UHGV virus genome: UHGV-1550212
Reading direction: 5' to 3' (one strand)
Length of the DNA: 64,000 nt
DNA from: a virus
A program made the translations under genes and the position numbers. Of this stretch, positions 33,078 to 49,293 are shown piece after piece. Position 1 is the stretch's first letter. Every line of letters begins with the position of its first letter. Under the pieces are notes generated by a model. It was not told where the DNA came from, made no database searches, and saw nothing but the letters and a program-made list of their open reading frames with translations.

Positions 33078-33434
33078 CTACTTGCGCATAAACAATGCAG
33101 CAAGCCAATTCACTGGCTTGTCAATAAGCTGCTTCCACATAGTCCAATTGTACATGCCATGCGCAAACATTGTAAGAGCAAACAACAGCATGCACATTGA
33201 TACAAGCCAATCAGCAAATGGCATATTGCCCCATCGAATGTACTCGAAAATGCCAACTTTAACAAGCTGAGCAAACAAAATGAGCATTACAGCCATTGCA
33301 AGTCGCATCCAGACTACATATTGCTGAGTCTTATCTACAAACTTTGCAATCAATGCTGGCACAAAGTACATAATGTACGCAAACAGCAACAAGCAAAAGC
33401 CTGCATACAGCAGATTAGAAATAAAAGCTCCCAT
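33078..33434 (-). CDS. multi-pass membrane protein (holin-like?)
   Basis: 118 aa, 3-4 hydrophobic helices; terminator at 33019-33056. Confidence 0.5.
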   Translation of the reverse strand: MGAFISNLLYAGFCLLLFAYIMYFVPALIAKFVDKTQQYVVWMRLAMAVMLILFAQLVKVGIFEYIRWGNMPFADWLVSMCMLLFALTMFAHGMYNWTMWKQLIDKPVNWLAALFMRK

Positions 33435-33437: not shown

Positions 33438-34319
33438 TTATCGTTTGAATTTGATGAAGTGTTCAGCATCAAGGCCCTCAAATATGTACGGGTCAAGAGT
33501 TTCCCAGAAGTTTGAGTATGTCGTTGTCTTTGCAATACTTGTCTGCTTTGACAAGTTCATGTTTGGATAGCCAAGCATTGCATAGTGTCGCTCATATATG
33601 TGCATTGACGTTGCATTATGCATATAAGCGCCAAGCTTAAGACCAAGTTCATTTGCGACAAGTTCTTGCAACAAAGTGAATGCAAACTGGTCGTTACAGA
33701 AGCCCCAAATGACATCATTGCTTCGCATATATGTTGTCAAGTACAGCTTATCACCACGAACATTGAAAACAAGATTCAATGTGCACGGCATATCTTTGCC
33801 AGTGTAGTTTGCATATTGCGGCTCATAAATGCTAATAACTGCTCGTCTTGTGCATTCATGATTTCGCAAACGTTCAATGACATCTGCAATCTGCTTGTGC
33901 CAAATTGCGCCATACTGTGAATTGACATTGACGCCATCATCACTGAACTGCTTCCAACGAGGCAAATAACGTTCAATGCATTCAACTGCAGGATTGGCTG
34001 TCATATACCATGCAAATTCTGCAGCAGCATTGAGCTTTTTCCATGGTCGTACATCAATCTTGATTTGTCGCTGTGAAGGGTCCTGAATAACTACAGACAC
34101 ATTCAGCAATTCTTTTGTTCGAGTCACTGTTTGTGCATTGTTGCCCTTTGATTCTACAAACTCACCTCTACAATGAAGTTCATACAAAATTGAGCGAAAT
34201 GCTTCTGTTGCAGTGTTTTCAACGATTGTCGTCTGTTGATAGCATAAATTTGACGACAATGCTTCAGCATCATTGTACTTTATGCTGTCATTGTCATAAG
34301 GTGAATTTTTTGTGTGCAT
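33438..34319 (-). CDS. ThyA-family pyrimidine hydroxymethylase/methylase, cytosine-specific type (dCMP hydroxymethylase-like)
   Basis: ThyA-like blocks EFAWYMTANP, YGAIWHKQ, TRRAVISIYEP, DMPCT (catalytic Cys), YMRSNDVIWGFCNDQFAF where the ThyA Asn aligns with Asp; start trimmed to 34319 to avoid a 116-nt overlap. Confidence 0.55.
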   Translation of the reverse strand: MHTKNSPYDNDSIKYNDAEALSSNLCYQQTTIVENTATEAFRSILYELHCRGEFVESKGNNAQTVTRTKELLNVSVVIQDPSQRQIKIDVRPWKKLNAAAEFAWYMTANPAVECIERYLPRWKQFSDDGVNVNSQYGAIWHKQIADVIERLRNHECTRRAVISIYEPQYANYTGKDMPCTLNLVFNVRGDKLYLTTYMRSNDVIWGFCNDQFAFTLLQELVANELGLKLGAYMHNATSMHIYERHYAMLGYPNMNLSKQTSIAKTTTYSNFWETLDPYIFEGLDAEHFIKFKR

Positions 34320-34344
34320 ATTTTGGGATGTTTGTTTTTTATTA

Positions 34345-35439
34345 TCATACAACGATAGTATCTCGTTTGCAATCTGTTTTGTCAAATATTGAACAACAAT
34401 ACGATGCAGATTGTTCTTTGATTTCAAGAGCTTCATCATTATCAAGTGATGAAATGCCATCTATGTATGCTTTTGCATTGCCAGCAATGTCATCATTTGT
34501 TAACAACGCTGCACGACGTTCAGTGCCAAAGAAGCCAAAGCACAATTGATGTTGCAGTGCTTCACGAGAAGTCTTGTCATCAAACTCTGATTTCATGTGT
34601 TGCATAAATTCGACAATATCATCAATGTCGCATTGAGTAAAGTCAATGCACAATTTATGCATGTACTTGAATCGTTTGTAGTCTGTTGCAAGAATTTCTG
34701 GGTGCACAATGAACAACGTCTTTTTGCTGTCTATTGGATTTGCAATGACTGATGCTTGAACATAATCGACAAGCATACCAGATTCACGAAGTTGCTCAAT
34801 TGTTTTGCCAAACACATGCCCAAGCGTGTCATCAAACCACTTCAAGTATGCTTCACTGTCTTCATCTTTTGACGCGCCAACAATGTAAATCTCATTGACT
34901 CCAAGTGCTTTGAGACGAGTATCAGACAACATAGTATTCAATTGATGCTGCACGTACAGCATTGGGCTGCTATGCAAAACCGTTTTAACAATCTCACAAG
35001 CAATGTCCATATATGCATAGTCAAGCTTTGCAGATTTTGACACATACACTGCACGTTGCTGCAATGGCTCAATTGCCGAGCATGTAGTTACAAAGTTGCC
35101 AACACATTCTGCTACTGCAATGTCATGCAAGTCATCTGCAATGTACACAATACTTGACAAGTCATCAAATGTTTGAACAAGTTGCTGAAGCTTTGTTTTG
35201 TAATTGCAGAGCATCAATGACTTGATGTTGCAATTACTTAGCATTGTCTTGATGAGTCGTTGACCTGCTTCAGTGCTGTCACCAGAAATGACATGCACAT
35301 CGCAGTCAAACCAGTTCAGCATGTCAATTGCATGCCGAACACCATATTGCATTTGTTTTGCAAACTTACCAGATTCATTGAACAGCATTTCACCTGACAT
35401 AATGCCGTCAAAGTCACATACGATTTGAAGTCTGTCCAT
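34345..35439 (-). CDS. HAD-superfamily (KdsC-like) sugar-phosphate phosphatase domain protein with unknown C-terminal domain
   Basis: IVCDFDGIMSGEMLFNESGKF (DxDG motif I), VHVISGDS, YIADDLHDIAV (motif IV), resembling KdsC/YrbI-type phosphatases. Confidence 0.5.
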   Translation of the reverse strand: MDRLQIVCDFDGIMSGEMLFNESGKFAKQMQYGVRHAIDMLNWFDCDVHVISGDSTEAGQRLIKTMLSNCNIKSLMLCNYKTKLQQLVQTFDDLSSIVYIADDLHDIAVAECVGNFVTTCSAIEPLQQRAVYVSKSAKLDYAYMDIACEIVKTVLHSSPMLYVQHQLNTMLSDTRLKALGVNEIYIVGASKDEDSEAYLKWFDDTLGHVFGKTIEQLRESGMLVDYVQASVIANPIDSKKTLFIVHPEILATDYKRFKYMHKLCIDFTQCDIDDIVEFMQHMKSEFDDKTSREALQHQLCFGFFGTERRAALLTNDDIAGNAKAYIDGISSLDNDEALEIKEQSASYCCSIFDKTDCKRDTIVV

Positions 35440-35443
35440 GCTG

Positions 35444-35749
35444 CTACAATTTTGAAGTTAAGTCAATTCGAATTTTGTCTGCATTGCTTTGGTCTACAAA
35501 TCTGTCATCAAAGAAACATTCAACTACGACAAGCTTCTTTGAATTCACAAATTCAATTAGCGATTTTTGCATTGCATCAAGCTGTTTCATGCATTTGCAA
35601 AAACTGCTGTATGACATGATTTGCTTTGGTGACATATCAAATGCATCCGCAATTCGCTGATGAGCAATCTTTTTTGATGTTGCAATAATGACATCTGCTT
35701 TGTTATCATTTGCATGATTGCCAAATATCGCAATATGATAAACTTTCAT
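35444..35749 (-). CDS. hypothetical protein
   Basis: Start set to ATG at 35749 (MKVYHIAIFG...); alternative start at 35776. Confidence 0.4.
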   Translation of the reverse strand: MKVYHIAIFGNHANDNKADVIIATSKKIAHQRIADAFDMSPKQIMSYSSFCKCMKQLDAMQKSLIEFVNSKKLVVVECFFDDRFVDQSNADKIRIDLTSKL

Positions 35750-35803
35750 TGTATGAGTGATTTTACTGTTATACATTTATGTTATATATGCACATTGTGC
35801 CAG

Positions 35804-38800
35804 TTAACAAATTGATGATGTGCCATCAGTGTTTGCTACAACTGTCAATGCGCTATCAAACTCATCTTGCTGTAACACATGGTCAACTATGAGTGTTTTG
35901 CGAATTGCAGAAAGCTTAGTAAGCAACTGCATCAACACTTGCTGATAATTGATGGTGTTGACGTCATGCTCAGCGCCAACAATCTGCCCGTTGCTAAGCT
36001 TGCCGCTAATTTCATCAATGAGCAAGATGTTGCCAACTTTGTTTAAGCGTTGAGTCAAAATGAGATGCACGATTGCAAGACCTGCGAAAGTCCCTTCCAT
36101 ACCAGACATTTGACTTACACTTCGAATTGACTTCGAGCCCATCAAGTCAATCATCTTTAGCACATTGTTGTCATTGATGTCAAAGAACACTCGGTAGTTC
36201 AATGAATCAAGCAAATCATTGAGCTGTGCATTCAGTGATGTTGCAATTGCTGCAAAGACATATGAAACTAAGCCTCGTTTGCTTGTGCACTGCTTATATG
36301 CATTGTACACCAAGTTTGCAATGTTCCACTTTTTCGAAGCTTGCAAATCTTTCTTGAGAGCTTCAATTCGCACATTGTTTGCTGACAAGTCTGCTTGCAT
36401 TGTTGCAATTTCTGCATTGATGCTTAGCAGTTTTGAGTTTGCTTCAGTTTCATGCTGCTTAGCATCATCAATGTCGACTTGCAATGCAGCGTTTGCCACA
36501 ATATGCTGCTGAGTTTGCTGTGCATGTTCAAGTGCAAATGCTGCAGCAGTCTTGTCAATCTCAAGTTGTTTAAGAGTAGACTCATATGATGCTTTCTTAT
36601 CATATTCTGCTTGAGCAATTTCAAGTTCAGCATTTATTGCAGCCAGTTCTGATTCTACTGCAGATTTTGATTGCAATACATCTTGCTTTGCTTGTTCAGC
36701 TTTACGTTTGATGTCTGCAAGTTGATTTGTGATATCTGCAATTTGCGTTTTGACTGCTTCAACTTCAAGCAATGTTGCTGCAGTAGCCATTGGCTGTGCA
36801 ATGAATGCATCCAAGTCTCTTTGCGCATTGACTACAGTTCTTTGCAAGTCATTAAGCTTTTCTGCATGCATATCATATGCAGCTTTATGTGCTGTATTCA
36901 GTGCAGCAATTATTGCATTTGAATCTGTGACATCAATGATTGCTGCTTGCAATTGCTCAATCTCATACTTCAAATTGCCAATTTTGACAACATTCTCATT
37001 GAATTGCTCTGTCTTTTGCGCGTATTCTTGACGCAACTTAGCAAGCTCAGTTGACAACCACAGCTTGTATGCTTGCCCTGTGCCAGATGTCAAATCATTT
37101 GTGCACACAGGACATTTATCATTTTCAAGTTGCTTTTGCTTGTCTATAACATTGTCGATGTTTGTTTTTGCAGCAGATACTTCTGTTCTAAGTGCATTTT
37201 GAACAGTGTTGATGTCTTCAATTTGCTTTTGCAAAGCATCTATTTTTGCCCGAGTGTCTGCATTATATGACTTGCCAAGATTTACCAGCACAGAATCAAT
37301 GCGCTGCTTTGCTGCATCATATGCAAGCTTTGATTCATCAAGCTTTGTTCTGTACAATGATTCTGCATGCGCAACTTCTTTCTGCACTTTTGCAGATAGC
37401 TCATTCTGTTTTGTAAGCAGCTCAGCATATGTATTGTGCAGCTGTGAGCCAGATGCTATGACATTTGTGTATGCTGCATTAGCTTCATTGTCAATATTAG
37501 TGAGTTGTTGCTCAATCTGCGCTTTTACTGTTTGCAATTTAGACATGTCTTGCAATGCAAGTGCAGCAATGTCAAGCTCAACTTTGCGAATCTTTGCAAC
37601 GATGCTATCGACATTTGCTGTTGCATCTTCTACAGTTAAAATATCTGCAGGAATTTGATGCAGTCTTTTTGAGAGCTCTTCTACTTTTGCACGTGCTTTT
37701 GTAAGTTTTGCAGACCATTCCCTTTGATTATCTTGTCGTAACTGCAAAGAGTCATTGAGTTCATTGCAAGTTGTATTGAGAGACTCAAGTTCTGCTTTTA
37801 TTGCGACATCAGTCAATGCGGGCTTACTAAGGCCATCAAACAATGCGGCCTTTGCAGCATCATTAGAATTGCCCAGTTGCACGAATGTGTTGATGCCAAG
37901 AGTATCAAGCAACCAGTCATTCAATGAATTTGAATCCATTGCAATGATTTGGTCAAGTAATGTCTGATTGATGCAGACATATCGCGACAATTCCCAGATA
38001 GAACCAAAGATTGCGTATAGCGTGTCTTTGATTTCATGCTGTGGCACTACGTAGTCATCTGACAATCTTACAAGCTGCACAGTCTCATTGACTGCTGACA
38101 CGTTATCTCGCCATGAGCCATCTGCATTTATTCGAGAGCCCCGTTTGAATCTACGTTCAAGTGTTCGAGTTAATTTGTAGTGAACATTTTGACCAGCTAC
38201 TACATGTACAAATACACAAGATGCTTCAAGCTTATCATATGACTCATTGTCAATCAATTTGTCATTGAAGTATGTCAAAGCGTTCTGCTTTGTTGCTGCA
38301 GAAGACTGTCCAGCGTCAATAAAGCCAGTCAGCAGCCATTTAATGAGTCTGAAGATTGTTGTTTTGCCATTGCCGTTGTTGCCTCTAACTTGTGTAAGCT
38401 GTGCAAGATTGTCAAAGCTGACATCGACATCTTTCAATGCCATGAACTGATTTGCTTTGACATTTTGAATGACGTATTTTGCAACTTCAGTGTCAAAAGA
38501 CAATTTATCAATTTGCTCATCAATCAATGACTTGAACATGTCAACAAACTGCTGAGCGTCTTCAGTAGCAACTATAGCATTGCGTTCAATGTACGCATTG
38601 ACCCAGTCAAGTGCAGCATCTTTAAGCCATTCAGCAGTTTGAACTTTTTGCAGCAAATTGTCGCCATTTGCATCTACAGCATTGATTGAATCAATGACAG
38701 CAGAATCATACAGAATGTCAATTGCGGCAACAACGTATGAACTTACAAGATTCTGTGCAATGCGCTCAACAATGCCAGACAGTTCGGGCTTTGTGACCTT

Positions 38801-39730
38801 TGACTTGATTTTGATTTTGTTGATGCGACCAGGATTGATGAGTGCAATCTTATCTGTTTTGATGTCATTGTCAATTGTGATTGTATGATAATGCACAAGC
38901 TGCTCAAGCGAATGCCACTCTACTACAATTCGCTTGTTGTCAATATCGATGTCAAGCAAGTTGTAGCCATGTTCTGCAGTGCCCTGTTGCGTTGCAGTGT
39001 CATTCAACAAATAGTCGCCTTCACCAAAATCTCTGACAATTGGCGAGCCGCAGTATGTCAATGTCTTGGTGCCAGAAGTCCATATTGCATGTTTGTGAAT
39101 ATCACCCATTGCAACAAAGTTGCTGTGAAACTGTGTTGCATCTATACGACTGTCATTGTCACCACGAACAATGCAGTCATCAAAGTTGACGCAATTCTTT
39201 ACAGGGTCATGGAACAGCTCAATAACACACATTGATGACAATGCAGCAATCTGCGATTCGTCAAGTGATGCCCAAGGCGAATATGTGCCACCAGACCACT
39301 TCTCATTTTGAGCCCATACTGCAGCAGCAAAACCAGGTGCAAGCAGTTCAACTCTTGAACTGTTGATATACTTGATTCGCTTGTCATCAATTGCAGTTAC
39401 AAGCTTGTCAATGCTATCTGTCCACTGCATTTGTGAACCATCACCAGCATCAAATGTGTTATCACGTTGCTTCAAATCATGATTGCCAGCAGTAATGACA
39501 ATTTGAAGCTTGTCATTGACTTCAAGCATGCCTTTGAGCAGCTTAACAAACAGCGACTCTTCAAGTGAATTGCTGTTCCACTGCTCAAACACATCGCCAA
39601 CAATAAACACAAACTCAACCGACTTTGCTTTGTCAATTAGTTGTTTGTTGATGTGCTCATATTCTACGAAACGTCGTAAATGCCCTTGTCGAACATTATA
39701 TTGAATGTCTGCTATGTGAAGTGCTTTCAT
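35804..39730 (-). CDS. fused SbcD-SbcC (Mre11-Rad50-like) nuclease/ATPase
   Basis: N-terminal calcineurin-like phosphoesterase motifs (HIADIQ, IVGDVFE, TAGNHD, GDIHKH); Walker A GNNGNGKTT; long coiled coil with CPVC zinc hook; C-terminal LLIDE Walker B. Confidence 0.8.
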   Translation of the reverse strand: MKALHIADIQYNVRQGHLRRFVEYEHINKQLIDKAKSVEFVFIVGDVFEQWNSNSLEESLFVKLLKGMLEVNDKLQIVITAGNHDLKQRDNTFDAGDGSQMQWTDSIDKLVTAIDDKRIKYINSSRVELLAPGFAAAVWAQNEKWSGGTYSPWASLDESQIAALSSMCVIELFHDPVKNCVNFDDCIVRGDNDSRIDATQFHSNFVAMGDIHKHAIWTSGTKTLTYCGSPIVRDFGEGDYLLNDTATQQGTAEHGYNLLDIDIDNKRIVVEWHSLEQLVHYHTITIDNDIKTDKIALINPGRINKIKIKSKVTKPELSGIVERIAQNLVSSYVVAAIDILYDSAVIDSINAVDANGDNLLQKVQTAEWLKDAALDWVNAYIERNAIVATEDAQQFVDMFKSLIDEQIDKLSFDTEVAKYVIQNVKANQFMALKDVDVSFDNLAQLTQVRGNNGNGKTTIFRLIKWLLTGFIDAGQSSAATKQNALTYFNDKLIDNESYDKLEASCVFVHVVAGQNVHYKLTRTLERRFKRGSRINADGSWRDNVSAVNETVQLVRLSDDYVVPQHEIKDTLYAIFGSIWELSRYVCINQTLLDQIIAMDSNSLNDWLLDTLGINTFVQLGNSNDAAKAALFDGLSKPALTDVAIKAELESLNTTCNELNDSLQLRQDNQREWSAKLTKARAKVEELSKRLHQIPADILTVEDATANVDSIVAKIRKVELDIAALALQDMSKLQTVKAQIEQQLTNIDNEANAAYTNVIASGSQLHNTYAELLTKQNELSAKVQKEVAHAESLYRTKLDESKLAYDAAKQRIDSVLVNLGKSYNADTRAKIDALQKQIEDINTVQNALRTEVSAAKTNIDNVIDKQKQLENDKCPVCTNDLTSGTGQAYKLWLSTELAKLRQEYAQKTEQFNENVVKIGNLKYEIEQLQAAIIDVTDSNAIIAALNTAHKAAYDMHAEKLNDLQRTVVNAQRDLDAFIAQPMATAATLLEVEAVKTQIADITNQLADIKRKAEQAKQDVLQSKSAVESELAAINAELEIAQAEYDKKASYESTLKQLEIDKTAAAFALEHAQQTQQHIVANAALQVDIDDAKQHETEANSKLLSINAEIATMQADLSANNVRIEALKKDLQASKKWNIANLVYNAYKQCTSKRGLVSYVFAAIATSLNAQLNDLLDSLNYRVFFDINDNNVLKMIDLMGSKSIRSVSQMSGMEGTFAGLAIVHLILTQRLNKVGNILLIDEISGKLSNGQIVGAEHDVNTINYQQVLMQLLTKLSAIRKTLIVDHVLQQDEFDSALTVVANTDGTSSIC

Positions 39731-39731
39731 A

Positions 39732-39781
39732 TTCTAAATGAGATTTAGATTATGTTCGAAATATATGAGAACATATATTAT
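39732..39781 (-). promoter_or_regulatory. conserved structured leader element, copy 2
   Basis: Near-identical to the 32779-32827 copy (one A insertion); immediately upstream of the SbcD-SbcC ATG. Confidence 0.5.
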
Positions 39782-39789
39782 ATGTTGAT

Positions 39790-39818
39790 ATTGTACAACA
39801 TATGTTATCATTTTGCAA
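39790..39818 (-). promoter_or_regulatory. sigma70-like promoter (TTGCAA-N17-TACAAT)
   Basis: Upstream of the SbcD-SbcC gene; leader contains the conserved element. Confidence 0.55.
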
Positions 39819-40155
39819 GCATTTTGATGATTGCATCTATCACAGTTTCACTGAGCAAGTAGTAGACAACGCTTATCAGCAATGATATCAGTACTGCAGC
39901 TGTGATAAATTGCAACGCATTCACAATTGCACGCACAAATGTTATCTGCGTGTTGTATGCAAGCACTATGCAGCATAGCACAATAATGACACACCAGACT
40001 ACAATTGCATATGCAGGCATCAATGAATTTGTCCATATGCAGTACAATACAGTAATTAGCATCAAAAATGCTATTGCTCTGATAACTGACACAATGATGT
40101 CTATGTAAGGCTTCATTGCACGCAAATGAACTCTTGGTTTATGTTGCTTCATCAT
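39808..40155 (-). CDS. multi-pass membrane protein
   Basis: 115 aa, highly hydrophobic. Confidence 0.5.
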   Translation of the reverse strand: MMKQHKPRVHLRAMKPYIDIIVSVIRAIAFLMLITVLYCIWTNSLMPAYAIVVWCVIIVLCCIVLAYNTQITFVRAIVNALQFITAAVLISLLISVVYYLLSETVIDAIIKMLAK

Positions 40156-41390
40156 GACTTTATGTACAATTCTGCAAGTTGTCTGGTGTACAGTCGTGGA
40201 TTATGATATGCTTTCCAATACGCAGTAGACTTTATTGCAGCAAGAATTTCATCATAATGTTTGACTGCTTCTGCTACAACTTCATCAAGCACGCTCAAAT
40301 CTTCTACACTGACAAGCAACCATTTTTCTACAATATCAATGAACTCCTGATTGCAATTGAAGCCATACTTGTAGTTGCAAGTATCAAGTACAAGTGGAAT
40401 GCAATCATTTGTCAATGCTTCAAAAAATCTACGAAGACTGAAACAATTCTCATCATATGATGGAATGCTCAATGTAAACTTGGCAGTCTTGATGAGTTGC
40501 AAATACTCTTCGTATGGAATCAGAGGACCATTGTGCTTCCATTGATTATTGTGTCGTCTTGTCGTGTACTTGAACAAAAACTTTGAATTGTCAAGTTCAC
40601 AAAGATGGTCCATGCGTAAAATGTAGTTATAGCGGTCTCTTCTGTCAGGCCAACTGTCAGTCATCGCAAACACAAAGTCTCTTTGCTTGTCACATTTTGC
40701 TGACATACCTCTATGCTGACACATGCAATACCAATATTGCTGCGATGGGCTGAACTCAAACTTTGAATGATGCTCACTTCCATCTTTGCATTGCTGAACA
40801 TAAATGTTGTCAGGCACAAAGTGAAAATAAAAGTGTCGAATTTGCAAGTCATTGATGTAGTCAAGCTTATGCTGCAATGGGTCTTCACAGAAATTGTAAC
40901 ACTGAATATGCTTTGCTGCTGCGTACTCAGCAACTATGAACGTGCACATCCATTGCAATGCAATATCTTCACTCTTCAAAAAGTTTACAAGCGGCTCATT
41001 TGGATGCGCTTTGCATTCATTGAACATTTTGTACCACTTGCATTGCTCCATATCGTACTTTGATACTGTATTGCCATTAAAGAACGACACAGTGTCAATT
41101 TTGAATGCATCAAGTTGTTTATGCACAATGTCAAGTGCTTGTGCGTATGTGATTGTCTCATCAGACATTATCTGCGCAAACTTGATTGGATGCGCATGCA
41201 AATTTGCGATAGTGTCTGCCGACATTTTACGCTGTGTGTGATAATCGACATACAAAAACTGACACTTGTCTGTAAGCAATTCAAGCATTGCTACAGATTT
41301 CCATCGAATTGCTTGAAAGAAATTGAAGTGTGCAGTTTGAAAGATGAGATGCGTAGGTTTATCAGAATGAGTCAAAGTTTGCATGGACAA
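40152..41390 (-). CDS. putative glycosyltransferase-like protein (cassette copy A1)
   Basis: Paralog of 44432..45988 (shared EDPLQHKL, PSQQYWY, FTLSIPSYDENCFSLRRFFEAL...CIPLV); the last block resembles a GT-B C-terminal motif. Confidence 0.4.
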   Translation of the reverse strand: MSMQTLTHSDKPTHLIFQTAHFNFFQAIRWKSVAMLELLTDKCQFLYVDYHTQRKMSADTIANLHAHPIKFAQIMSDETITYAQALDIVHKQLDAFKIDTVSFFNGNTVSKYDMEQCKWYKMFNECKAHPNEPLVNFLKSEDIALQWMCTFIVAEYAAAKHIQCYNFCEDPLQHKLDYINDLQIRHFYFHFVPDNIYVQQCKDGSEHHSKFEFSPSQQYWYCMCQHRGMSAKCDKQRDFVFAMTDSWPDRRDRYNYILRMDHLCELDNSKFLFKYTTRRHNNQWKHNGPLIPYEEYLQLIKTAKFTLSIPSYDENCFSLRRFFEALTNDCIPLVLDTCNYKYGFNCNQEFIDIVEKWLLVSVEDLSVLDEVVAEAVKHYDEILAAIKSTAYWKAYHNPRLYTRQLAELYIKS

Positions 41391-42547
41391 ATGTCGCAGT
41401 TATGTTGATGTTTGTGTTTATTTATGAAGTCATATGTCACTGCAAAAAAGTGCTTTGCAATGTCATATCGAGTTTTCAAATATGCTGCTTGGCGTTCACA
41501 AAACGCTGCATAAATGTCTGGGTGTCGTTTGAATGCAGCAATGCGTTGCTGTACTTGTTCTGCAGAATGTACATATGACACTTTGCTCAAATATGCATCA
41601 TCTGCAAATAATCGTCTGTCTTTGTCAACTGCGCAATCAACAAAAGTTGCAATTCGTGCAACAATGGCTTCACCAACACGATTTGGCATCAACCCATATT
41701 GCTCATATTGTTGGTCACCGATAGCAATGTGCGCTGCTGCATATGACATTGCATATGGCACACTATAAAATGGCACACTAAAATCAAATGAGCAATTTGA
41801 CTGTAGTAGTTGCGTTTGTGCATCAGACAATCTACTTGTCAAGTTGCCTGTATGTTTGTGCTCACCAAGAAAACTTGAGCGACAACCTGAATCTACATAG
41901 TATCGAATGACTTTGTTTATGCGACTGTCAGATAGCATATGCCAATCTCTTGTAGCATATATCAAGTCTACTGTTTTTGCACCAATATGACGAGGCTCTA
42001 TCGCAACATTGCTGTATGTTGGCAGCATGAACAATGGCAGCCATTTGACATTGTTGAACACTGAATGTTCATTTGACAAATTCATGCACTGGCTAAGTTC
42101 AAGTACTGGCTCATCATACACGCCATGCAGTTCAACTCTGCCTGCATGCACAAAGTTGACACGCTTAAATGGAAATCGCATATCAGTGCAAACCGTCATT
42201 CTTGCTGCAGTAGACATTCGCCACATAGCATGCAGCTTAACAACTGCTTCGGCTTGAGGTCGAGGCAGCATATTTAGCAAATCAATCCAGCCACCCCACA
42301 AAATCCAAACATCATTTGAACAGATGTTGAATTGCAAACTCAATATGTCTTCTACTGTTGCAGCAATGATGTCATGCCCATTGATGCTTGCAAGGTGCTT
42401 TCGTTGATTTGCAATAAGAATGACTTGACTGAACGGAGACTCTGGAAATGACACAAGCGCCTTTGCAAACAACACGGGTTCTTGTGATACCAAGTTGTTT
42501 GAGTATGGGTCGATTATGCAATCAAGCTTGTGTATGAAAAGTCTCAT
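41372..42547 (-). CDS. hypothetical enzyme-like protein (cassette copy B1)
   Basis: Paralog of 45985..47151 (shared N-terminus LFI.K.D, TDxRF.F, L.PNR). Confidence 0.45.
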   Translation of the reverse strand: MRLFIHKLDCIIDPYSNNLVSQEPVLFAKALVSFPESPFSQVILIANQRKHLASINGHDIIAATVEDILSLQFNICSNDVWILWGGWIDLLNMLPRPQAEAVVKLHAMWRMSTAARMTVCTDMRFPFKRVNFVHAGRVELHGVYDEPVLELSQCMNLSNEHSVFNNVKWLPLFMLPTYSNVAIEPRHIGAKTVDLIYATRDWHMLSDSRINKVIRYYVDSGCRSSFLGEHKHTGNLTSRLSDAQTQLLQSNCSFDFSVPFYSVPYAMSYAAAHIAIGDQQYEQYGLMPNRVGEAIVARIATFVDCAVDKDRRLFADDAYLSKVSYVHSAEQVQQRIAAFKRHPDIYAAFCERQAAYLKTRYDIAKHFFAVTYDFINKHKHQHNCDICPCKL

Positions 42548-43278
42548 TTTGCAGACGATTCAAAAAATTTGTAGACATCACAGTTAGCAATGTGGTCATT
42601 CCAAGCATCTTCAGAGTCTGCAACAAAGCCACAATGACAGCGTTTTGGCTGCCAAACTGGTTCAACTACTGCAGGCATTGCTTCTTCAATAGTGTTTGCA
42701 GGTTCATTATCTGCTGGCAATACTTCAACGTCTTCAACTTGTGCTGCATCTTGTTGTGCACGCTGCTCAATGACATTGCCCTCAAAGTCAAACTGAATGC
42801 CAGCTTGTTCTGCTTTTGTACGATTGTTACGAGCTACGAACAAATACGCAAAGATGAATTCGACAAGCGCTATGGCAAGTGACTTCAGTGCATTGACAAG
42901 AAGCATGATGCCCGTTGACAAGTGGCCGTCAAAGCTCAAAAATACGAACACGCATGTAAAGCATGACATAAACACTGCAATCAGTGGAATGTTCTTGTAT
43001 TTTGGCAACAAATCAGAGTTGACTGATGTAAGCAACACAACGAATTGATAACCTATTGCAAGCCAATAGTCGCCAAACACTGCATAGATATGCGTAGTGA
43101 TGCCAATAAGAAATGTGATAGTCACAATCATAATGAGCAACACACTTGTCAGAAAGTCTGCAATAGAATTGCTGAGCTTGTCATACCAGTGTTTGTTGAC
43201 AATTGATGTGTTGGCTACGCGCACTTTACTAAGTGCATCTATGCCGCTTTTGATATTTGATTGTGCTTTCATACACAT
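42544..43278 (-). CDS. membrane protein with cytoplasmic acidic C-terminal domain
   Basis: 244 aa, about four TM helices, then Cys/His-containing tail (CHCGF...HIANCD). Confidence 0.5.
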   Translation of the reverse strand: MCMKAQSNIKSGIDALSKVRVANTSIVNKHWYDKLSNSIADFLTSVLLIMIVTITFLIGITTHIYAVFGDYWLAIGYQFVVLLTSVNSDLLPKYKNIPLIAVFMSCFTCVFVFLSFDGHLSTGIMLLVNALKSLAIALVEFIFAYLFVARNNRTKAEQAGIQFDFEGNVIEQRAQQDAAQVEDVEVLPADNEPANTIEEAMPAVVEPVWQPKRCHCGFVADSEDAWNDHIANCDVYKFFESSAK

Positions 43279-43284
43279 ATAATG

Positions 43285-43422
43285 TTATATCATATCTACA
43301 CACAAAGCAAATGCTACTGCAAGTGCAGCCATAATTGCATATACGACTATCGATGCAATATAATCTGATTCAGGATTCCACTTATCAGGTGTGTTAAGCT
43401 TGTGATACTTGTCTCGTCTCAT
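43285..43422 (-). CDS. possible small membrane protein (45 aa)
   Basis: Hand-translated MRRDKYHKLNTPDKWNPESDYIASIVVYAIMAALAVAFALCVDMI; sits just downstream of a terminator-like hairpin; below the track length cutoff. Confidence 0.25.
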   Translation of the reverse strand: MRRDKYHKLNTPDKWNPESDYIASIVVYAIMAALAVAFALCVDMI

Positions 43423-43430
43423 CTTGAGTC

Positions 43431-43481
43431 AAAAAATGATGGCTGCTGCTACATTTTGTGAAATCATGTGCAGCAGCCATC
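43431..43481 (-). terminator. terminator-like hairpin (possible attenuator or sRNA 3' end)
   Basis: 12-bp perfect stem GATGGCTGCTGC/GCAGCAGCCATC with 20-nt loop, followed by UUUUUU on the minus strand; lies ~55 nt downstream of a promoter. Confidence 0.5.
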
Positions 43482-43530
43482 TGGCAGGTTTCTTGCTTTG
43501 TAAAGCTTGGATAGAGGATGGATTTTATAT
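43431..43530 (-). ncRNA. candidate ~100-nt small RNA or transcription attenuator (speculative)
   Basis: Defined only by promoter (-10 at 43537-43542) upstream and a strong hairpin/U6 terminator at its 3' end; no sequence family recognised. Confidence 0.2.
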
Positions 43531-43536
43531 GTTGAT

Positions 43537-43565
43537 ATTGTACAACATGCAAAATGCATTTGCAT
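43537..43565 (-). promoter_or_regulatory. sigma70-like promoter (ATGCAA-N17-TACAAT) with adjacent 17-bp tandem repeats
   Basis: Followed ~55 nt downstream by the terminator-like hairpin 43438-43481. Confidence 0.4.
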
Positions 43566-43594
43566 TTTGATACAACATGCATTTTGATACAACA
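43561..43594. repeat. perfect 17-bp tandem direct repeat x2 (TGCATTTTGATACAACA)
   Basis: Read directly; overlaps the -35 region of promoter 43537-43565, next to an AAAATGCA-TT-TGCATTTT palindrome. Confidence 0.7.
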
Positions 43595-43601
43595 TATATT
43601 G

Positions 43602-43817
43602 TCATTTTGCACAGTCTGAGGCAATCAAATCTTTGTCAAAGCATTCATCTATAATGTCTTCAATAAGATACGCTTCGACATTGTTAAGCTTCAAGATATC
43701 TACGAGTTTTGCTTTGATATCGCAAGCTAATGCAGATTCAACTGTATGCAATATGACTGATGATGCGACATGCTTGTCTGTCATCATTTGTAATTGCTGT
43801 GGTGTTACTCTACTCAT
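43602..43817 (-). CDS. hypothetical small protein
   Basis: 71-aa ORF with 4-nt overlap to the upstream kinase gene. Confidence 0.35.
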   Translation of the reverse strand: MSRVTPQQLQMMTDKHVASSVILHTVESALACDIKAKLVDILKLNNVEAYLIEDIIDECFDKDLIASDCAK

Positions 43818-44386
43818 GCGCCAAGTTCAGCTAAGCATTTTAGCACATTGTCTTGCAGACTTACATTGTTGTCGATTTCGACAATATGCAATGGTGAGTT
43901 CTTTCGCCACTCATCATATGCAGCAATCATTTTATTGCGTTTGTTGACATCAATGTTGACATCGCCACAAAAGTTATCAACAAAATCTGGTGCAACATCA
44001 CGCTTGCATAAGAACACTATATGCGGCAATGTTGCAAGCTTCTTTTCATATGCTTCAAAGAATGCTTGATGCTTATCAGTGTGCAACTCTTTGTAAAGCG
44101 TTGTGTTAAAGATTTGATGTGTGATGAACGAACGGTCACACAAAAATGTTGCTTTGCCAAAGCCTTTAGAGTCATTTCCAATGAACTCTAAGAAGAAGCG
44201 CCAATCATAAAAGAACGCTTCATTGAGGTCCCAAGGTTCGGGCATTGGGTCATCACCTGACTCATGCTGTTGCCACCAAGAACGAGATGTTCGTTTGCAA
44301 TTGATAAACCATGGGCGCCACTTCATCAATTCATTGATGAGTGTTGTTTTGCCTGAAGCTTCTACACCTTCAAATATCGCTATCAT
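43814..44386 (-). CDS. P-loop deoxynucleoside monophosphate kinase-like protein
   Basis: Walker A IFEGVEASGKTT and a CDRSF (DRY/DRS-like) motif as in thymidylate/dNMP kinases. Confidence 0.6.
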   Translation of the reverse strand: MIAIFEGVEASGKTTLINELMKWRPWFINCKRTSRSWWQQHESGDDPMPEPWDLNEAFFYDWRFFLEFIGNDSKGFGKATFLCDRSFITHQIFNTTLYKELHTDKHQAFFEAYEKKLATLPHIVFLCKRDVAPDFVDNFCGDVNIDVNKRNKMIAAYDEWRKNSPLHIVEIDNNVSLQDNVLKCLAELGA

Positions 44387-44411
44387 TGTGTATTATGTTT
44401 GATTTTTGATT

Positions 44412-44440
44412 ACAGTACAACGTAGTTATGCTCATTGCAC
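44412..44440 (-). promoter_or_regulatory. weak sigma70-like promoter (GTGCAA-N17-TACTGT)
   Basis: Upstream of the dNMP kinase gene; -10 is a poor match. Confidence 0.3.
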
Positions 44441-45988
44441 TTCTACGAATGGCTCTTTCAACACAAAGCTGTCACCATTGCAACATGCGGCTGAGCCATC
44501 GTCTGCATCAAGTGCACATGACATATCAGACTTGCAGAACTTGCAATATAAACATGACCATGCATGACTCATGAAGTTGTTTGCTTCACAAATTGCGCAA
44601 CGCTCATGCATAAGTGCATTGTCGCAATTATCACAAGACTTCTTGATTGGCACAGTTTTGTTGATGTATGCAAGATGCAATGCAATATCATACACAAAGT
44701 CACCCGTATATTGCTGAATGAAATCAGTATGCCACAACTCTTTTAACAATTGTGCATGTCTATATGGCTGAACAATGTCTTCAAGATGCTGCAAGTCATC
44801 ATCGCTAACCATGAGCTTCTTAATGACAAATTGTTTGAACTGTGGCCATCTGTCAAACATATAGAGTTTGCATGAGTTGTGCACAAGTGGAACACAGCCA
44901 AGCACAATGCTTTCACAGAATCTACGCAAACTAAAACAGTTTGCATCATATGACGGCACAATCAATGTGAATCTGCTATGCTTGATGAGTTCAAGGTATG
45001 TGTCATATGGCAGTAGCTTATCTGACAATTGCTGTTGTTGTTTGTCTCTGCTGAAAAATCTGAACACAATACCCTTGTCAATTGCATCTTGATTGTGCAG
45101 ATGCATGAGTTTGTTGATGAGTTCTGTGCGTTCAGTTTTGTCTCGCCAAGTATTCGTCAATGCAAATGCAAAATTCAGTCGCTTGTCATCAAACGTCGCT
45201 TCAATATCATTCCAAGTTTTGTCATGCAAATACCAGTATTGCTGTGATGGGCACCATCCATAATATGCAATAGCATCTTGTTCTGCTGTAACGTCATACA
45301 CATATGCAGAATTGTATTCAAGGCCAAGCCTTTTGACGTTGTTGCAGTCATGAAAGTACCAATGCTGCACTTTGAATATCTTTGATGCACTGAATGCGCT
45401 TTCATATGGCCCTGAATAGCGATAGTCAATGTAATTGAGCTTGTGCTGCAATGGGTCTTCGACAAAGTTGTTTATGACTGTGCCTTGTTGTTTGCCCTTA
45501 GTCTTGCGAGCATTCAATGCAACATTGTATTGCATGATGACTGACAGCATCTCATACACTACATACATGAGTGCTTTGTAGACTGAGCCTGCTGCGTCAA
45601 TTAGTGGCAAATCACGTTTGACTGATGTAGCGCCAAATGTCTTGCAATATGCAGAAAATGTGTCAAGTTCTGCTTGCTGAAATGAATTGCATGCACCATT
45701 GAATATGTTGAATGTTGCAATGTAGCTCATATTGCAAGATGTCATTGACATATCAAGACGCTTCATAATGTCGACAATGCGACATTGAGCAAAATCTGAC
45801 ACATCAACATATTTGACATGATGGCCTGATGTAGTCAAGCCATCTGCGACATCTTTCATCTGTGGCACAAAGCCTACAACAATGAATAAGTCATCTTTGT
45901 TTGCTCGTTCAAACATTGCTGCACTTTTCCAAGTCAATGAATTGAAAAAGTCTATGTAGCCAGTTTGAGTGATTATATGCGTTCTCAT
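44432..45988 (-). CDS. putative glycosyltransferase-like protein (cassette copy A2) with Cys-rich C-terminal extension
   Basis: Paralog of 40152..41390 (EDPLQHKLNY, PSQQYWY, FTLIVPSYDANCFSLRRFCESIVLGCVPLV); extra CDNCDN...C cluster. Confidence 0.4.
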   Translation of the reverse strand: MRTHIITQTGYIDFFNSLTWKSAAMFERANKDDLFIVVGFVPQMKDVADGLTTSGHHVKYVDVSDFAQCRIVDIMKRLDMSMTSCNMSYIATFNIFNGACNSFQQAELDTFSAYCKTFGATSVKRDLPLIDAAGSVYKALMYVVYEMLSVIMQYNVALNARKTKGKQQGTVINNFVEDPLQHKLNYIDYRYSGPYESAFSASKIFKVQHWYFHDCNNVKRLGLEYNSAYVYDVTAEQDAIAYYGWCPSQQYWYLHDKTWNDIEATFDDKRLNFAFALTNTWRDKTERTELINKLMHLHNQDAIDKGIVFRFFSRDKQQQQLSDKLLPYDTYLELIKHSRFTLIVPSYDANCFSLRRFCESIVLGCVPLVHNSCKLYMFDRWPQFKQFVIKKLMVSDDDLQHLEDIVQPYRHAQLLKELWHTDFIQQYTGDFVYDIALHLAYINKTVPIKKSCDNCDNALMHERCAICEANNFMSHAWSCLYCKFCKSDMSCALDADDGSAACCNGDSFVLKEPFVEVQ

Positions 45989-47151
45989 GATTTGAATGTT
46001 TGTTCAAGAATTGTATAGCACTGTGCAATCATTGTTGCAAGAGCTTTTTGCTGAAGCTGTTTGCAATTTGAAGATATTGTGTATTGCTGACGCTCAGTTG
46101 TAGTACTGCTTAATGTCGCAAATTGCAGGTACTCATCTTCTGACATGATATCAGCAAACAATGCAGACAATTCATAATCTACAATGACATTTGAGCAGTT
46201 TGCAAGTACGCCTTCAACCCATCGATTTGGCAACAAACATGCTTGCACATACAATGAATCGCCGACTACAAGATTGCACATTGACTGCGACATTACATAC
46301 GTCATCATGTCATATGGCACTTTGTACTTAAGTGTGAAGTTTTGTGCTGCTGACTTAATTGCTTGCAGAATTGTGTCATCAAGATATGATGTTATAAGGC
46401 AAGTATTGTATGCCTGCATAATGTAACGCTCAATCACGCTTCTACGATACTCGTCAAGATATGTGAAACCTGCACAACTTGCACAACATGCATATTGCTG
46501 CTTTATGTCAGCAAAGCTACACACATGCGCTTCAATTGCATTTTGCATTGTTGCTTGTCGTTTGAGCAATCTTGGCTCTTTAATGCATTGAAGCTTCAAT
46601 GCATTGACTGCTGCAATGATTTGCAATGGCACAAACACGCATTGAGACTCATCAAGCCAAGCATACTTGAGATTTTTATGTTGACACAGATGCGTAATGT
46701 TGTCTTTTTGTGATTCTAAGTACTCTTTGTAATTATGCAATCGCTTTGTCAATGTGCACTCTTTGTCAAAATCAAATCGCAAATCAGTTGTTAGTGTAAA
46801 TTTGCGAACATTTGACAAGCACCATGCTTTGAATGCATTCCACAGAACATCTTGCTGAAATTCTGAACAATGTTCAAGAGCAGCCTTTGAGCCCTGCCAG
46901 AATATTGCGCAATCATCTGATTTTGCACACTTCAGCATATCTTGCCATGCATGTATGCTATTGATGATATGCACTTTATTATGCACAAGCTCATTAAGTG
47001 TTGCATGCTTGTTCTCAGGGTCGCCAAACACGTATACTGTATCAAACATTGTTTGAACAAACCCTGCAAATGCAATGGGTTCTGTATGTTTAAGATGCTG
47101 TATGTCTGAACGCACACATGTGTCAAATTTCAAAATGAAGAGTTTGCTCAT
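45985..47151 (-). CDS. hypothetical enzyme-like protein (cassette copy B2)
   Basis: Paralog of 41372..42547; promoter at 47181-47210. Confidence 0.45.
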   Translation of the reverse strand: MSKLFILKFDTCVRSDIQHLKHTEPIAFAGFVQTMFDTVYVFGDPENKHATLNELVHNKVHIINSIHAWQDMLKCAKSDDCAIFWQGSKAALEHCSEFQQDVLWNAFKAWCLSNVRKFTLTTDLRFDFDKECTLTKRLHNYKEYLESQKDNITHLCQHKNLKYAWLDESQCVFVPLQIIAAVNALKLQCIKEPRLLKRQATMQNAIEAHVCSFADIKQQYACCASCAGFTYLDEYRRSVIERYIMQAYNTCLITSYLDDTILQAIKSAAQNFTLKYKVPYDMMTYVMSQSMCNLVVGDSLYVQACLLPNRWVEGVLANCSNVIVDYELSALFADIMSEDEYLQFATLSSTTTERQQYTISSNCKQLQQKALATMIAQCYTILEQTFKS

Positions 47152-47848
47152 ATGCTTTGCAATTATCTATTACATGTTGATATTGTACTTCATCTATGAT
47201 GTGATTTGCAATGACACCATATGACGTGTCATACATTGGCATCTTCTCATATGACAATGCTGCGTCAAGATTGCATATCACATAATTGCAATGCACAATG
47301 TCATCTACATTGTCACTAACTGCTACGATATTGACGCAATTTGCAAGAAATGCATCATCAAAGTCTACTTGATTGCATGCAACCTCATAATCTGCAGCAC
47401 TTCTTGGGTACCAATATAACTCAATGCCGGCACTACTAAGTAGTCGCAAGCCATCTATGTGATGATACAAGTCAACAAAATGCACTTGCTTAACGCCTGC
47501 TTGCAAAATAAGCTTTGCGCAATCAATGCATGGACTATATGTTACATATAGCACTGCGTCATTTGCAGTCGCATTGCCATATTTGCACAGCTTCATCAAT
47601 GCATTTGATTCTGCATGCAAAACTTCTTTGTTGGTTTTGATGCCTGCTGATGTTGCATGTTCACAACAATTTGACATGCCAGTTGGCATGCCATTGTAGC
47701 CATCTGAAATTATGCAGCCATCTTTTACAAGCAATGCGCCGACTTTTGCTCGCTGAGCATGTGAATTTAATGACCAGAGCTCAGCCATTTTAAGATATAT
47801 GAGATTTCGTTGAAACCACTTTGTTTCAGACCAAGTTAGCCATTTCAT
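47123..47848 (-). CDS. dCMP deaminase (zinc-dependent cytidine/deoxycytidylate deaminase family)
   Basis: HAESNAL and YSPCIDCAKLI zinc-binding motifs; ~90-aa C-terminal extension. Confidence 0.8.
   Translation of the reverse strand: MKWLTWSETKWFQRNLIYLKMAELWSLNSHAQRAKVGALLVKDGCIISDGYNGMPTGMSNCCEHATSAGIKTNKEVLHAESNALMKLCKYGNATANDAVLYVTYSPCIDCAKLILQAGVKQVHFVDLYHHIDGLRLLSSAGIELYWYPRSAADYEVACNQVDFDDAFLANCVNIVAVSDNVDDIVHCNYVICNLDAALSYEKMPMYDTSYGVIANHIIDEVQYQHVIDNCKAYEQTLHFEI
47181..47210 (-). promoter_or_regulatory. sigma70-like promoter (TTGCAA-N18-TACAAT)
   Basis: Upstream of 45985..47151, inside the 3' end of the dCMP deaminase gene. Confidence 0.45.
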
Positions 47849-47852
47849 ATGC

Positions 47853-49235
47853 TTATAGTGAATTTATGATTTTGCTGAAGTCTGTTACAATGTTTGAATG
47901 CAACTCAATGAGATAGTTGTCTTGCAATGTCATAAGCTCATCAAGTTCATCTACACTTAATGACTTGAAGACTTCTGCACAATGCTTGGCATTTTTGATG
48001 TGTGCGACTTTATGATACTTGATAAAGTCAGGACACACACAATTATTCACGTACATACAAGGCAAGCCTGCAAGCATTGATTCAGTTGCTCTGAATGTAA
48101 TTGCGTTGCATTGTTTCATATTCTCTTCACACACAATGTATGCAAAATCGAACTGTGACAAGTATGTTAACATGTCAAAATACTTGATTGTGCCATCATA
48201 GACATGTGGCATATCAATGTCAATATTGCCGACAACATGAGTTTCGATGTCTGCGCAGCCAAGCAAATCAATGACTTCTTGTTTGCGTTCAGCACACATG
48301 TCATTCCAAGCCACCATCGGCATTGCAGTAGTCAACTTGCCTGATTGCAATTTTGCTAAACGTTTTTCATTATGTGATGCATACAATGGAATGCCTTCAA
48401 GTCTTGCATGCTGAATTGCGTTGACATTGATTTCTGTCAACATTGACAACGCATTATGTATGTTCTGCGCTTGTGTGACAACTGTCATCTTTTTGCAGTG
48501 CAATCTAAAGTTTGCAATGTGTGGCACGAGTCGTAAATCATACCATAGCCATACAATGTCGCCCTTCCATGATTCAATGAGCTGCTTGTGCTGTTTGTAG
48601 ATGACTGACTGACTCATCGAGTCATTCATTGCTGAGCATACAATGTACAACACACCATATTTGTCAATTGAGTGCTGCACATAGTCAGCTGAGCAGCATA
48701 GCACATCTTTGTCGAAAAGTTTTGGGTCATGCACTTCTGCATCATCTACAATAAGATGCGCCTTGTATTGATGCCGCTTTGTTACATCAATGATGCGAGC
48801 AATTGCGAAACATTCTCTGCTTTGAATGTCTGTCTTGTCTTGTCGCAGCTGGTCTTGTGTTCGTACTGGATACGCAGGTTTCAGTATTACAGGCACAAAA
48901 TGTGTTTTTGCAGAATATGGTGCATCTACTGCAGCAAACTCCGCGTTGCATCGTTGTGAATGCAGATGTCGTGCATATGATTGCAACAATTCATGAATCA
49001 TTGCAATATACTCTTCCAATTCAAACAGCTCGTGTTCAGTTGCGTTTGTTATGTCAACTACGACAGTTTGTCGCACAATTGGATACACACAAATAACGTA
49101 ATCATTATATGGCAGTGGAATGCCTATAAATGTTGAGCATCTGTTTCGAAGCCATGCAATGCAATCAACATCAAACACAATTTCATATTGCTGCTGCAAA
49201 GCATTTAATTGCGCTATAATCAAATCATTGTGCAT
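47853..49235 (-). CDS. putative GT-B fold glycosyltransferase
   Basis: C-terminal ...YIVCEENMKQCNAITFRATESMLAGLPCMYVN resembles the E-x7-E / G.P donor-binding motif of GT1/GT4 enzymes; two tandem promoters upstream. Confidence 0.45.
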   Translation of the reverse strand: MHNDLIIAQLNALQQQYEIVFDVDCIAWLRNRCSTFIGIPLPYNDYVICVYPIVRQTVVVDITNATEHELFELEEYIAMIHELLQSYARHLHSQRCNAEFAAVDAPYSAKTHFVPVILKPAYPVRTQDQLRQDKTDIQSRECFAIARIIDVTKRHQYKAHLIVDDAEVHDPKLFDKDVLCCSADYVQHSIDKYGVLYIVCSAMNDSMSQSVIYKQHKQLIESWKGDIVWLWYDLRLVPHIANFRLHCKKMTVVTQAQNIHNALSMLTEINVNAIQHARLEGIPLYASHNEKRLAKLQSGKLTTAMPMVAWNDMCAERKQEVIDLLGCADIETHVVGNIDIDMPHVYDGTIKYFDMLTYLSQFDFAYIVCEENMKQCNAITFRATESMLAGLPCMYVNNCVCPDFIKYHKVAHIKNAKHCAEVFKSLSVDELDELMTLQDNYLIELHSNIVTDFSKIINSL

Positions 49236-49264
49236 GTTCGTATTGTTTTATCATATATGAATAT

Positions 49265-49293
49265 ATTGTACAACATGTATTGAGCTTTTGCAC
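49265..49293 (-). promoter_or_regulatory. sigma70-like promoter, proximal of a tandem pair (GTGCAA-N17-TACAAT)
   Basis: 29 nt upstream of the GT-B gene ATG (49235). Confidence 0.5.

Follow-up and report, generated by a model that had tools for sequence, protein, structure and literature searches.

A predicted route to glycosylated 5-hydroxymethylcytosine, with five predicted GT-B genes, in the virus genome UHGV-1550212

The stretch of DNA analysed here (hereafter the window) comprises 64,000 nucleotides of UHGV-1550212, the genome of an uncultured phage, and corresponds to positions 110,629-174,628, the end of the 174,628-bp IMG/VR contig IMGVR_UViG_3300045988_152288. Its interval 33438..49235 carries a gene module by which the phage probably (we put the chance at roughly two in three) replaces cytosine in its DNA by 5-hydroxymethylcytosine (5hmC) and then adds sugars; the likely product, judged from the encoded proteins, is 5hmC bearing one or more sugars. 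Sugar-coated cytosines are a main shield of phages against restriction enzymes and CRISPR, and are in turn targeted by type IV restriction and DNA glycosylases. Profile, residue-level and fold evidence for a thymidylate synthase (ThyA) homologue with a hydroxymethylase signature, three homologues of the T4 DNA beta-glucosyltransferase (BGT), two further glycosyltransferases of the GT-B fold, a deoxycytidine monophosphate (dCMP) deaminase, a canonical ThyA, a MazG-type pyrophosphohydrolase and a dUTPase supports the T-even gene logic that an earlier reading of the letters (hereafter the sequence-only reading) had proposed for this interval. All the features listed in that reading were recovered at their coordinates and on the minus strand; every gene between 29 and 52 kb lies on this strand, in a dense packing with several overlaps of 4-19 nt.

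The gene at 33438..34319 encodes a ThyA-family enzyme that is best read as a 5-hydroxymethyl-dCMP (5hm-dCMP) synthase, i.e., a dCMP hydroxymethylase, and not as a 5-hydroxycytosine or 5-methylcytosine enzyme, because its signature residues match those of T4 gp42 rather than those of the other control enzymes. The protein belongs to the Pfam family Thymidylat_synt (PF00303; 9.3e-24, 84.4 bits for a cut-off of 24.3). Its best PDB match is the CMP hydroxymethylase MilA (1.4e-22); T4 dCMP hydroxymethylase (2e-11) and a chain of the L. casei thymidylate synthase with Asp at the 177-equivalent position, apparently the N229D mutant, are matched as well. The open reading frame (ORF) is open up to 34460; the start at 34319 is preferred because the resulting N-terminus (MHTKN) lines up with those of the homologues and because the longer form would extend 116 nt into the upstream gene.

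Residues of this family are numbered here as in E. coli ThyA. The region around position 177 (RSNDVIWGFCND) aligns to RSCDVFLGLPFN in E. coli ThyA and to RSNDVVFGFRND in T4 gp42, and this alignment confirms the Asp that the sequence-only reading had seen in place of Asn177. The equivalent of the catalytic Cys146 is present as the Cys of a DMPCT motif, and position 143 is occupied by Asp (L143D), as in T4 gp42 and MilA. According to Lee et al. (NAR 2026; PMC13326640), the catalytic residue is Cys146, the substrate becomes dCMP with N177D, an acidic residue instead of Leu143, which admits water, accompanies hydroxymethyl and not methyl products, and D169N is the mark of newly found flavin-dependent 5-hydroxy-dCMP synthases, being present in all those tested. 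When aligned with control enzymes of known product, among which position 177 behaved as expected, the window enzyme (E58, W80, Y94, R126, R127, D143, C146, T147, M165, R166, S167, N168, D169, G173, D177 and H207) is identical to T4 gp42 at all 16 compared positions, and differs from E. coli ThyA (L143, N177), SPO1-type gp29 (N177) and RB69 gp48 (N169, V173). The residues at positions 143, 169 and 177 are Leu, Asp and Asn in E. coli ThyA and in the canonical ThyA of the window (product dTMP), Asp, Asp and Asn in SPO1-type gp29 (5hm-dUMP), Asp, Asp and Asp in T4 gp42 (5hm-dCMP), Glu, Asn and Asp in RB69 gp48 (5-hydroxy-dCMP), and again Asp, Asp and Asp in the window enzyme, for which 5hm-dCMP is the predicted product.

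Three genes, here called C (47853..49235), B2 (45985..47151) and B1 (41372..42547), encode homologues of T4 BGT. The GT-B-like glycosyltransferase that the sequence-only reading had placed at C is supported by a profile match to T4 BGT. The two paralogous pairs of large enzyme-like proteins that it had noticed are also real (24% identity, 5e-14, between B1 and B2; 30% identity, 2e-46, between A1 and A2) and are themselves predicted glycosyltransferases, so that five GT-B genes are present in total. The pairs form a duplicated two-gene unit, B2-A2 and B1-A1. The B family has only five database relatives, and its profile aligns to T4 b-gt by hhalign with a probability of 96.4% (E 1.4e-9, 228 columns); B2 was placed in it by its identity to B1 and by the family alignment. 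B1 also matches the PHROG beta-glucosyltransferase family (5e-8). The AlphaFold model of B1 has a low confidence score (pLDDT 59), and its top Foldseek match in the PDB, T4 BGT (1nzd, 2.4e-5), is therefore used as weak support only.

Protein C, the third and most divergent homologue, has 460 amino acids with an N-terminal extension of about 110. Searches of Pfam and PHROG and a tblastn search of phage records gave no match to it. When 1.84 billion representatives were searched exhaustively with HMMER, 12 relatives emerged, and the only significant PDB match of the profile built from them is T4 BGT (1bgt, 2e-11); by hhalign, the C family aligns to the B family with a probability of 97.8% and to T4 b-gt with 95.8%. 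Profile searches against GT-B families, a check that the sequence-only reading had suggested, hence lead from both C and B to T4 BGT and not to unrelated families. At the residue level, Asp100 of T4 BGT (TDIRLPF) aligns to TDMRFPF in B and YDLRLVP in C, and Arg269 and Glu272, which we take from BGT structures to be the residues that bind uridine diphosphate, align to NRVGEA in B and FRATES in C. These residues are invariant in the B family (D122, R290 and E293, in an alignment that includes B2) and in the C family (D233, R382 and E385), and for this reason C, B2 and B1 are predicted to be three paralogous members of the beta-glucosyltransferase family. Asp100 of the T4 enzyme is catalytic (Pyle et al., bioRxiv 10.1101/2023.12.21.572611).

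The two other glycosyltransferases, A1 (40152..41390) and A2 (44432..45988), belong to a rare GT47-like family that has only 12 matches, the copies of the window included, among 5.8 billion protein clusters. Neither reaches the cut-off of the Pfam family Exostosin_GT47 (PF03016, 33.4 bits), A1 scoring 22.4 bits (8.8e-5) and A2 26.3 bits (5.6e-6); of the 12 homologues listed, seven have a precomputed PF03016 match, and A2 itself is probably among these seven. The AlphaFold2 model of A1 (pLDDT 86.8, pTM 0.85) shows two predicted Rossmann-like domains that match solved GT-B structures. Foldseek returned 117 PDB matches with E<=1e-3, and all 50 of those listed have the GT-B fold, UDP-GlcNAc 2-epimerases included. 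The top viral structural match is a protein named DNA beta-glucosyltransferase in its source (9.9e-11). By sequence, the family profile found only noise in the PDB, and hhalign detected no relation to T4 alpha-glucosyltransferase, T4 BGT, RB69 gp46/47 or the B family.

Genomic context lends support to a DNA role of the A family. In the Agathobaculum phage AB434P2 (OP172633, 3838..5582), a cytosine-type ThyA homologue is immediately followed by a gene for an A-family homologue (hhalign 98.5%, E 4e-15). This ThyA homologue has the D143/D169/D177 signature and is annotated as 'deoxyuridylate hydroxymethyltransferase', a dUMP enzyme, and the GT-B gene downstream is unannotated; no BGT homologue was found in the 44-kb record. 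Given the cytosine-type signature and the adjoining A-family gene, this cultured phage may carry glycosylated 5hmC. The Chryseobacterium phage MA9V-2 also encodes a distant A-family protein. A literature search found nothing on DNA modification in MA9V or AB434P2 phages. The Bacteroides phage BF486P2 (OP172667) has two ThyA homologues (19770..20531 and 22603..23283), both with Asp at 177 and 143, one of which is atypical in having Leu at 58 and 173. We tentatively raise the possibility, to which we give less than even odds, that the A family consists of unrecognised 5hmC DNA glycosyltransferases which, together with the three BGT homologues, build oligosaccharide or mixed glycans beyond those of any characterised 5hmC phage of the ThyA route.

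The context of the A genes also bears on an alternative in which the DNA contains bare or lightly modified 5hmC, and at least some of the five GT-B proteins glycosylate other targets, for instance glycans of the host envelope, proteins of the virion or small molecules. The fold of A1 fits 2-epimerases and the glycosyltransferases of natural products, proteins and lipids no less well than it fits any DNA enzyme, hhalign relates the A family to neither T4 a-gt nor T4 b-gt, and a conserved membrane protein is encoded just upstream of B1-A1. On the other hand, three of the five proteins fall in the T4 DNA beta-glucosyltransferase family with their catalytic residues kept and with T4 BGT as sole significant PDB match, and A-family genes recur beside cytosine-type ThyA homologues in unrelated phages. 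We consider this alternative unlikely, though worth keeping in mind.

The sequence-only reading had not considered that the ThyA homologue might instead make 5-hydroxy-dCMP in a flavin-dependent reaction, like the synthases of RB69, DLP3 and RL38JI, in which case ether-linked glycans would be carried by 5-hydroxycytosine. The cluster logic is common to both systems (a ThyA homologue with N177D and an acidic residue 143, a thymidylate-kinase-like kinase, several GT-B proteins), and MilA is also the best PDB match of the known 5-hydroxy-dCMP synthases. However, the Asn at position 169 that marks these synthases, and that RB69 gp48 shows in the same alignment, is absent from the window enzyme, which keeps Asp169, Gly173 and Trp80 like T4 gp42. 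Moreover, RB69 and DLP3 lack T4-type alpha- and beta-glucosyltransferases, whereas the window has three of the beta type. We rejected this candidate on the Asp169 test and regard it as quite improbable. Still less probable is a dCMP methyltransferase of the Xp12 type, with 5-methylcytosine in the DNA and transferases unrelated to DNA: N177D sets only the substrate and not the transferred group, but Asp143 is found in hydroxymethylases and is not the bulky, water-excluding hydrophobic residue of methyl-transferring enzymes, and the BGT homologues argue for a hydroxyl acceptor. Finally, hydroxymethylation of the ribonucleotide CMP for a small-molecule product, as by MilA, would agree with MilA being the best-scoring solved structure, but can hardly be credited in a phage replication and nucleotide setting with a dCMP deaminase, ThyA, dUTPase and DNA glucosyltransferase homologues.

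Under the preferred reading, cytosine glycosylation by way of 5hmC, the genes of the window can be arranged in a putative pathway. The MazG-type protein, the dUTPase or both would return dCTP and dUTP to the monophosphate pool. The ThyA homologue, whose residue signature was described above, would then hydroxymethylate dCMP, and a thymidylate-kinase-like kinase together with the nucleoside diphosphate kinase of the host would raise 5hm-dCMP to the triphosphate, for incorporation by the family-B polymerase of the phage. After replication, C, B2 and B1 would move a sugar from a nucleotide-sugar to the hydroxymethyl group; their homology to T4 BGT and their conserved catalytic residues are observed, and the substrate and sugar are presumed from these. 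A2 and A1 may lengthen the glycan or attach sugar directly to 5hmC. The supply of dTMP would be sustained by the dCMP deaminase together with the canonical ThyA, as by cd and td in T4, and a KdsC-like HAD phosphatase could act on a sugar phosphate or a nucleotide.

The enzymes assigned to the nucleotide steps of this pathway differ in how well they are identified. The dCMP deaminase proposed at 47123..47848 holds up well (Pfam dCMP_cyt_deam_1 6e-21, 74.7 bits for a cut-off of 25; PHROG dCMP deaminase 1e-43), and the zinc motifs HAE and PCxxC are seen in its sequence. It has 241 amino acids in the window, where it shares 29 nt with the start of B2, and 217 and 197 on contigs with an identical A2, so that its C-terminal tail seems variable. 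Pfam also confirmed the four enzymes that the sequence-only reading had noted elsewhere in the window, all on the minus strand: the canonical thymidylate synthase (29156..30214, dUMP to dTMP; 3.6e-76, with L143, D169 and N177 kept), the MazG-type NTP pyrophosphohydrolase (8840..9214; 8.2e-9, 36.1 bits for a cut-off of 22), the dUTPase (9216..9707; 7e-11, and NCBIfam dut 1.9e-13) and thioredoxin (52027..52344; 8e-20). The MazG-type protein is a candidate dCTPase; since it showed no similarity to T4 gp56 and its PDB matches are marginal, we only infer this role.

For the P-loop deoxynucleoside monophosphate (dNMP) kinase proposed at 43814..44386, the P-loop stood, and the identity as a dNMP kinase is putative: the protein is weakly thymidylate-kinase-like and is here a candidate 5hm-dCMP kinase. 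Its P-loop (EGVEASGKTT) and its DRS motif both resemble those of Tmk, and it is 36% identical to an MA9V-2 protein annotated as 'thymidylate kinase', the gene of which adjoins the ThyA homologue of that phage. Against the thymidylate kinase model TIGR00041 it scored 16.4 bits (cut-off 83.25) over the P-loop region only, with weak scores for other families; no PDB relative was found below E 0.6, and its similarity to RB69 gp45 is confined to the P-loop. In the window, a gp1-type kinase was not recognised by searches that involved no direct comparison with T4 gp1; structures of T4 gp1 (1del and 1dek) are among those in the PDB (PMC13326640). Comparable kinases occur in the cytosine-glycosylation clusters of RB69, DLP3 and RL38JI (PMC13326640).

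Several points weigh against the proposed pathway. The predicted products depend on a small number of signature residues and on homologies of 13-23% identity, the structural model of B1 is poor, and the A family lies below the Pfam GT47 cut-off and shares its fold with UDP-GlcNAc 2-epimerases. Neither the kinase nor the MazG-type protein shows sequence evidence of specificity. In addition, the 64-kb window of the 174.6-kb contig yielded no gp1-type dNMP kinase, no gene for the synthesis of nucleotide-sugars and no nuclease for host DNA.

The module shares with T4 the dCMP hydroxymethylase signature, BGT homologues with the Asp and Arg/Glu residues, a dCMP deaminase combined with ThyA, a pyrophosphohydrolase and T4-like replication neighbours. 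It differs in having three divergent BGT paralogues (13-23% identity) whereas T4 has one, in lacking an alpha-glucosyltransferase homologue detectable by hhalign, and in the addition of two GT47-like GT-B proteins, which brings the transferase genes to five versus one or two. Furthermore, the kinase of the window is thymidylate-kinase-like, no gp1-type kinase being recognised, the MazG-type protein has no detectable similarity to gp56, and a HAD phosphatase is added.

RB69, DLP3 and RL38JI, which have arabinosyl or hexosyl 5-hydroxycytosine systems (PMC13326640), resemble the window in that one cluster combines a ThyA homologue (acidic residue 143, N177D), a 'nucleotide kinase' of the thymidylate-kinase-like type and several GT-B proteins; a HAD-like phosphatase and a MazG-like dCTPase occur there as well, and the products are oligosaccharides. 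In contrast, the ThyA homologue of the window lacks D169N and is accompanied by T4 BGT-type transferases, which RB69 and DLP3 lack, and genes for arabinose-5-phosphate isomerase and nucleotidyltransferase were not seen in the window. Metaviromic GT-B enzymes that are structurally akin to T4 BGT add mono-, di- and trisaccharides to 5hmC; about 28% of the GT-B contigs are associated with a thymidylate synthase homologue, and one cluster activates its sugar with a HAD-like enzyme (Pyle et al., bioRxiv 10.1101/2023.12.21.572611). The clusters of these authors work after replication, with a methyltransferase and a TET-like dioxygenase, whereas the route predicted for the window is pre-replicative, and their text mentions no GT47-like family. 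Among cultured phages, the Chryseobacterium jumbo phages MA9V-1 and MA9V-2 are the nearest by protein similarity (25-44% identity) and local gene order. They share with the window the HAD phosphatase, the thymidylate-kinase-like kinase, the cytosine-type ThyA homologue, the helicase, the Mre11-Rad50 fusion and an A-family protein, but no BGT homologue was found in the 40 kb examined of their genomes.

The module is a richer form of the known T4-type anti-restriction strategy and not a new strategy. It is not new in kind because multi-sugar cytosine modifications and metagenomic clusters of ThyA homologues with GT-B genes have already been described; novel in relation to the T-even phages are, as predicted from sequence, the five GT-B genes, the rare GT47-like family, the thymidylate-kinase-like kinase and the HAD phosphatase. 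If the proposed pathway is correct, this would be the largest set of transferases yet linked to the thymidylate synthase route to 5hmC, and it would point to a candidate new family of DNA glycosyltransferases with one member beside the ThyA homologue of the cultured gut phage AB434P2. Such transferases could be useful as reagents for 5hmC labelling. The known paradigm would be unchanged.

Gene order in the module is kept among related contigs (C, deaminase, (B2), A2, kinase ... membrane protein, B1, A1, Mre11-Rad50 ... HAD phosphatase, ThyA homologue, helicase); these contigs differ in how many transferases they encode. The motif TGCAA(A)-N13-14-GTTGTACAAT(AT), which recurs in the window, is similar to sigma-70 promoters whose -10 element is extended. 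The core of the motif, TTGTACAAT, was counted 12 times for 1.7 expected, and the motif is found at 49272, 49325, 43544, 39797, 13730, 11637 and 3497 (minus strand), mostly just upstream of gene starts. Generic scans for sigma-70 promoters and terminators gave results at chance level overall. Within the module, the motif precedes gene C, the group formed by the 244-amino-acid protein gene, B1 and A1, and the Mre11-Rad50 gene, which suggests that the module may consist of three transcription units. Just upstream of gene C, an intergenic control region on the minus strand (49265..49411) contains a terminator hairpin with a 13-bp stem (49382..49411) followed by promoter-like TGCAA...GTTGTACAAT elements. 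The small ORFs 49225..49440 and 43394..43624 are probably not genes, because they contain the terminator hairpin, the promoter motif or both.

The HAD protein, absent from the sequence-only reading, is encoded on the minus strand at 34345..35439, next to the ThyA homologue. Residues 6-140 form a KdsC-like HAD phosphatase domain (PDB 2p9j, 1e-4; KDO-8-P phosphatase 3ij5, 2e-3), which stays below the cut-off of TIGR01670 (38.5 bits for 106.95, E 1e-9). The motifs DFDG, S/T-G-D (SGD), Lys83 and DDxxD are invariant in three homologues, including those of MA9V-2 and of a related contig (L002), and align to KdsC structures; conservation of the C-terminal half is too poor for an assignment. Three phage lineages (the window, L002 and MA9V-2) show a linkage of this gene to the ThyA homologue. 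By analogy with the HAD enzymes of known glycosylation clusters its substrate could be a sugar phosphate, and could equally be a nucleotide.

The interval also contains genes that are not part of the predicted modification chemistry or have no family assignment, all on the minus strand. The largest (35804..39730) encodes a predicted fusion nuclease of 1308 amino acids of the Mre11-Rad50 (SbcCD, T4 gp47/gp46-like) type, with the Pfam domains Metallophos and AAA_23 and PHROG matches to metallo-phosphoesterase (6e-114) and SbcC-like (3e-18) families; it is embedded in the interval but takes no part in the modification chemistry. The 110-amino-acid protein at 35444..35776 has no family match; its position is conserved, a gene of the same size coming after the Mre11-Rad50 gene in the related contigs L002, L009 and L010. 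Hydropathy indicates three hydrophobic segments in the 115-amino-acid protein at 39808..40155, the start of which overlaps the end of A1 by 4 nt, and three to four in the 244-amino-acid membrane protein at 42544..43278, which ends with a C-terminal Cys/His motif. The latter is conserved just upstream of B1-A1, and L002 encodes a homologue with 47% identity in the same place. Small and medium-sized predicted membrane proteins are thus interspersed in the module (33078..33434, 39808..40155, 42544..43278 and 43285..43422). In T4, the membrane gene imm adjoins gene 42 and b-gt (PMC13326640), which the membrane proteins of the module recall, possibly by coincidence.

At the DNA level, a megablast search of 50,697 phage records found no match to the module. 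A second contig of 175,564 bp is 97% identical to that of the window, and an identical A2 protein is encoded on contigs in ENA and Logan assemblies. The nearest cultured relatives hint at a Bacteroidota host, which we do not assert given the sigma-70-like form of the recurrent promoter motif. Bacteroidota promoters are not known to take this form with its extended -10 element. T4-like replication genes are found nearby (gp32, a UvsW-like helicase, the gp46/47-like nuclease and a family-B DNA polymerase), and a scan of the window found no tRNAs. The polymerase is split into an exonuclease/N-terminal part (10096..11601) and a C-terminal polymerase part (6510..7802), both on the minus strand and separated by four genes, those for the MazG-type protein and dUTPase among them. 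Directly upstream of the N-terminal part, 11617..12027 encodes a protein with a DUF488-N3a domain (Pfam 3.4e-9). An ORF of 1113 amino acids (16032..19373) is without Pfam match. Finally, the genes at 1777..2976 and 55801..56967 are paralogues located 53 kb apart, with 42% identity (2e-91) and similarity to DUF7487.

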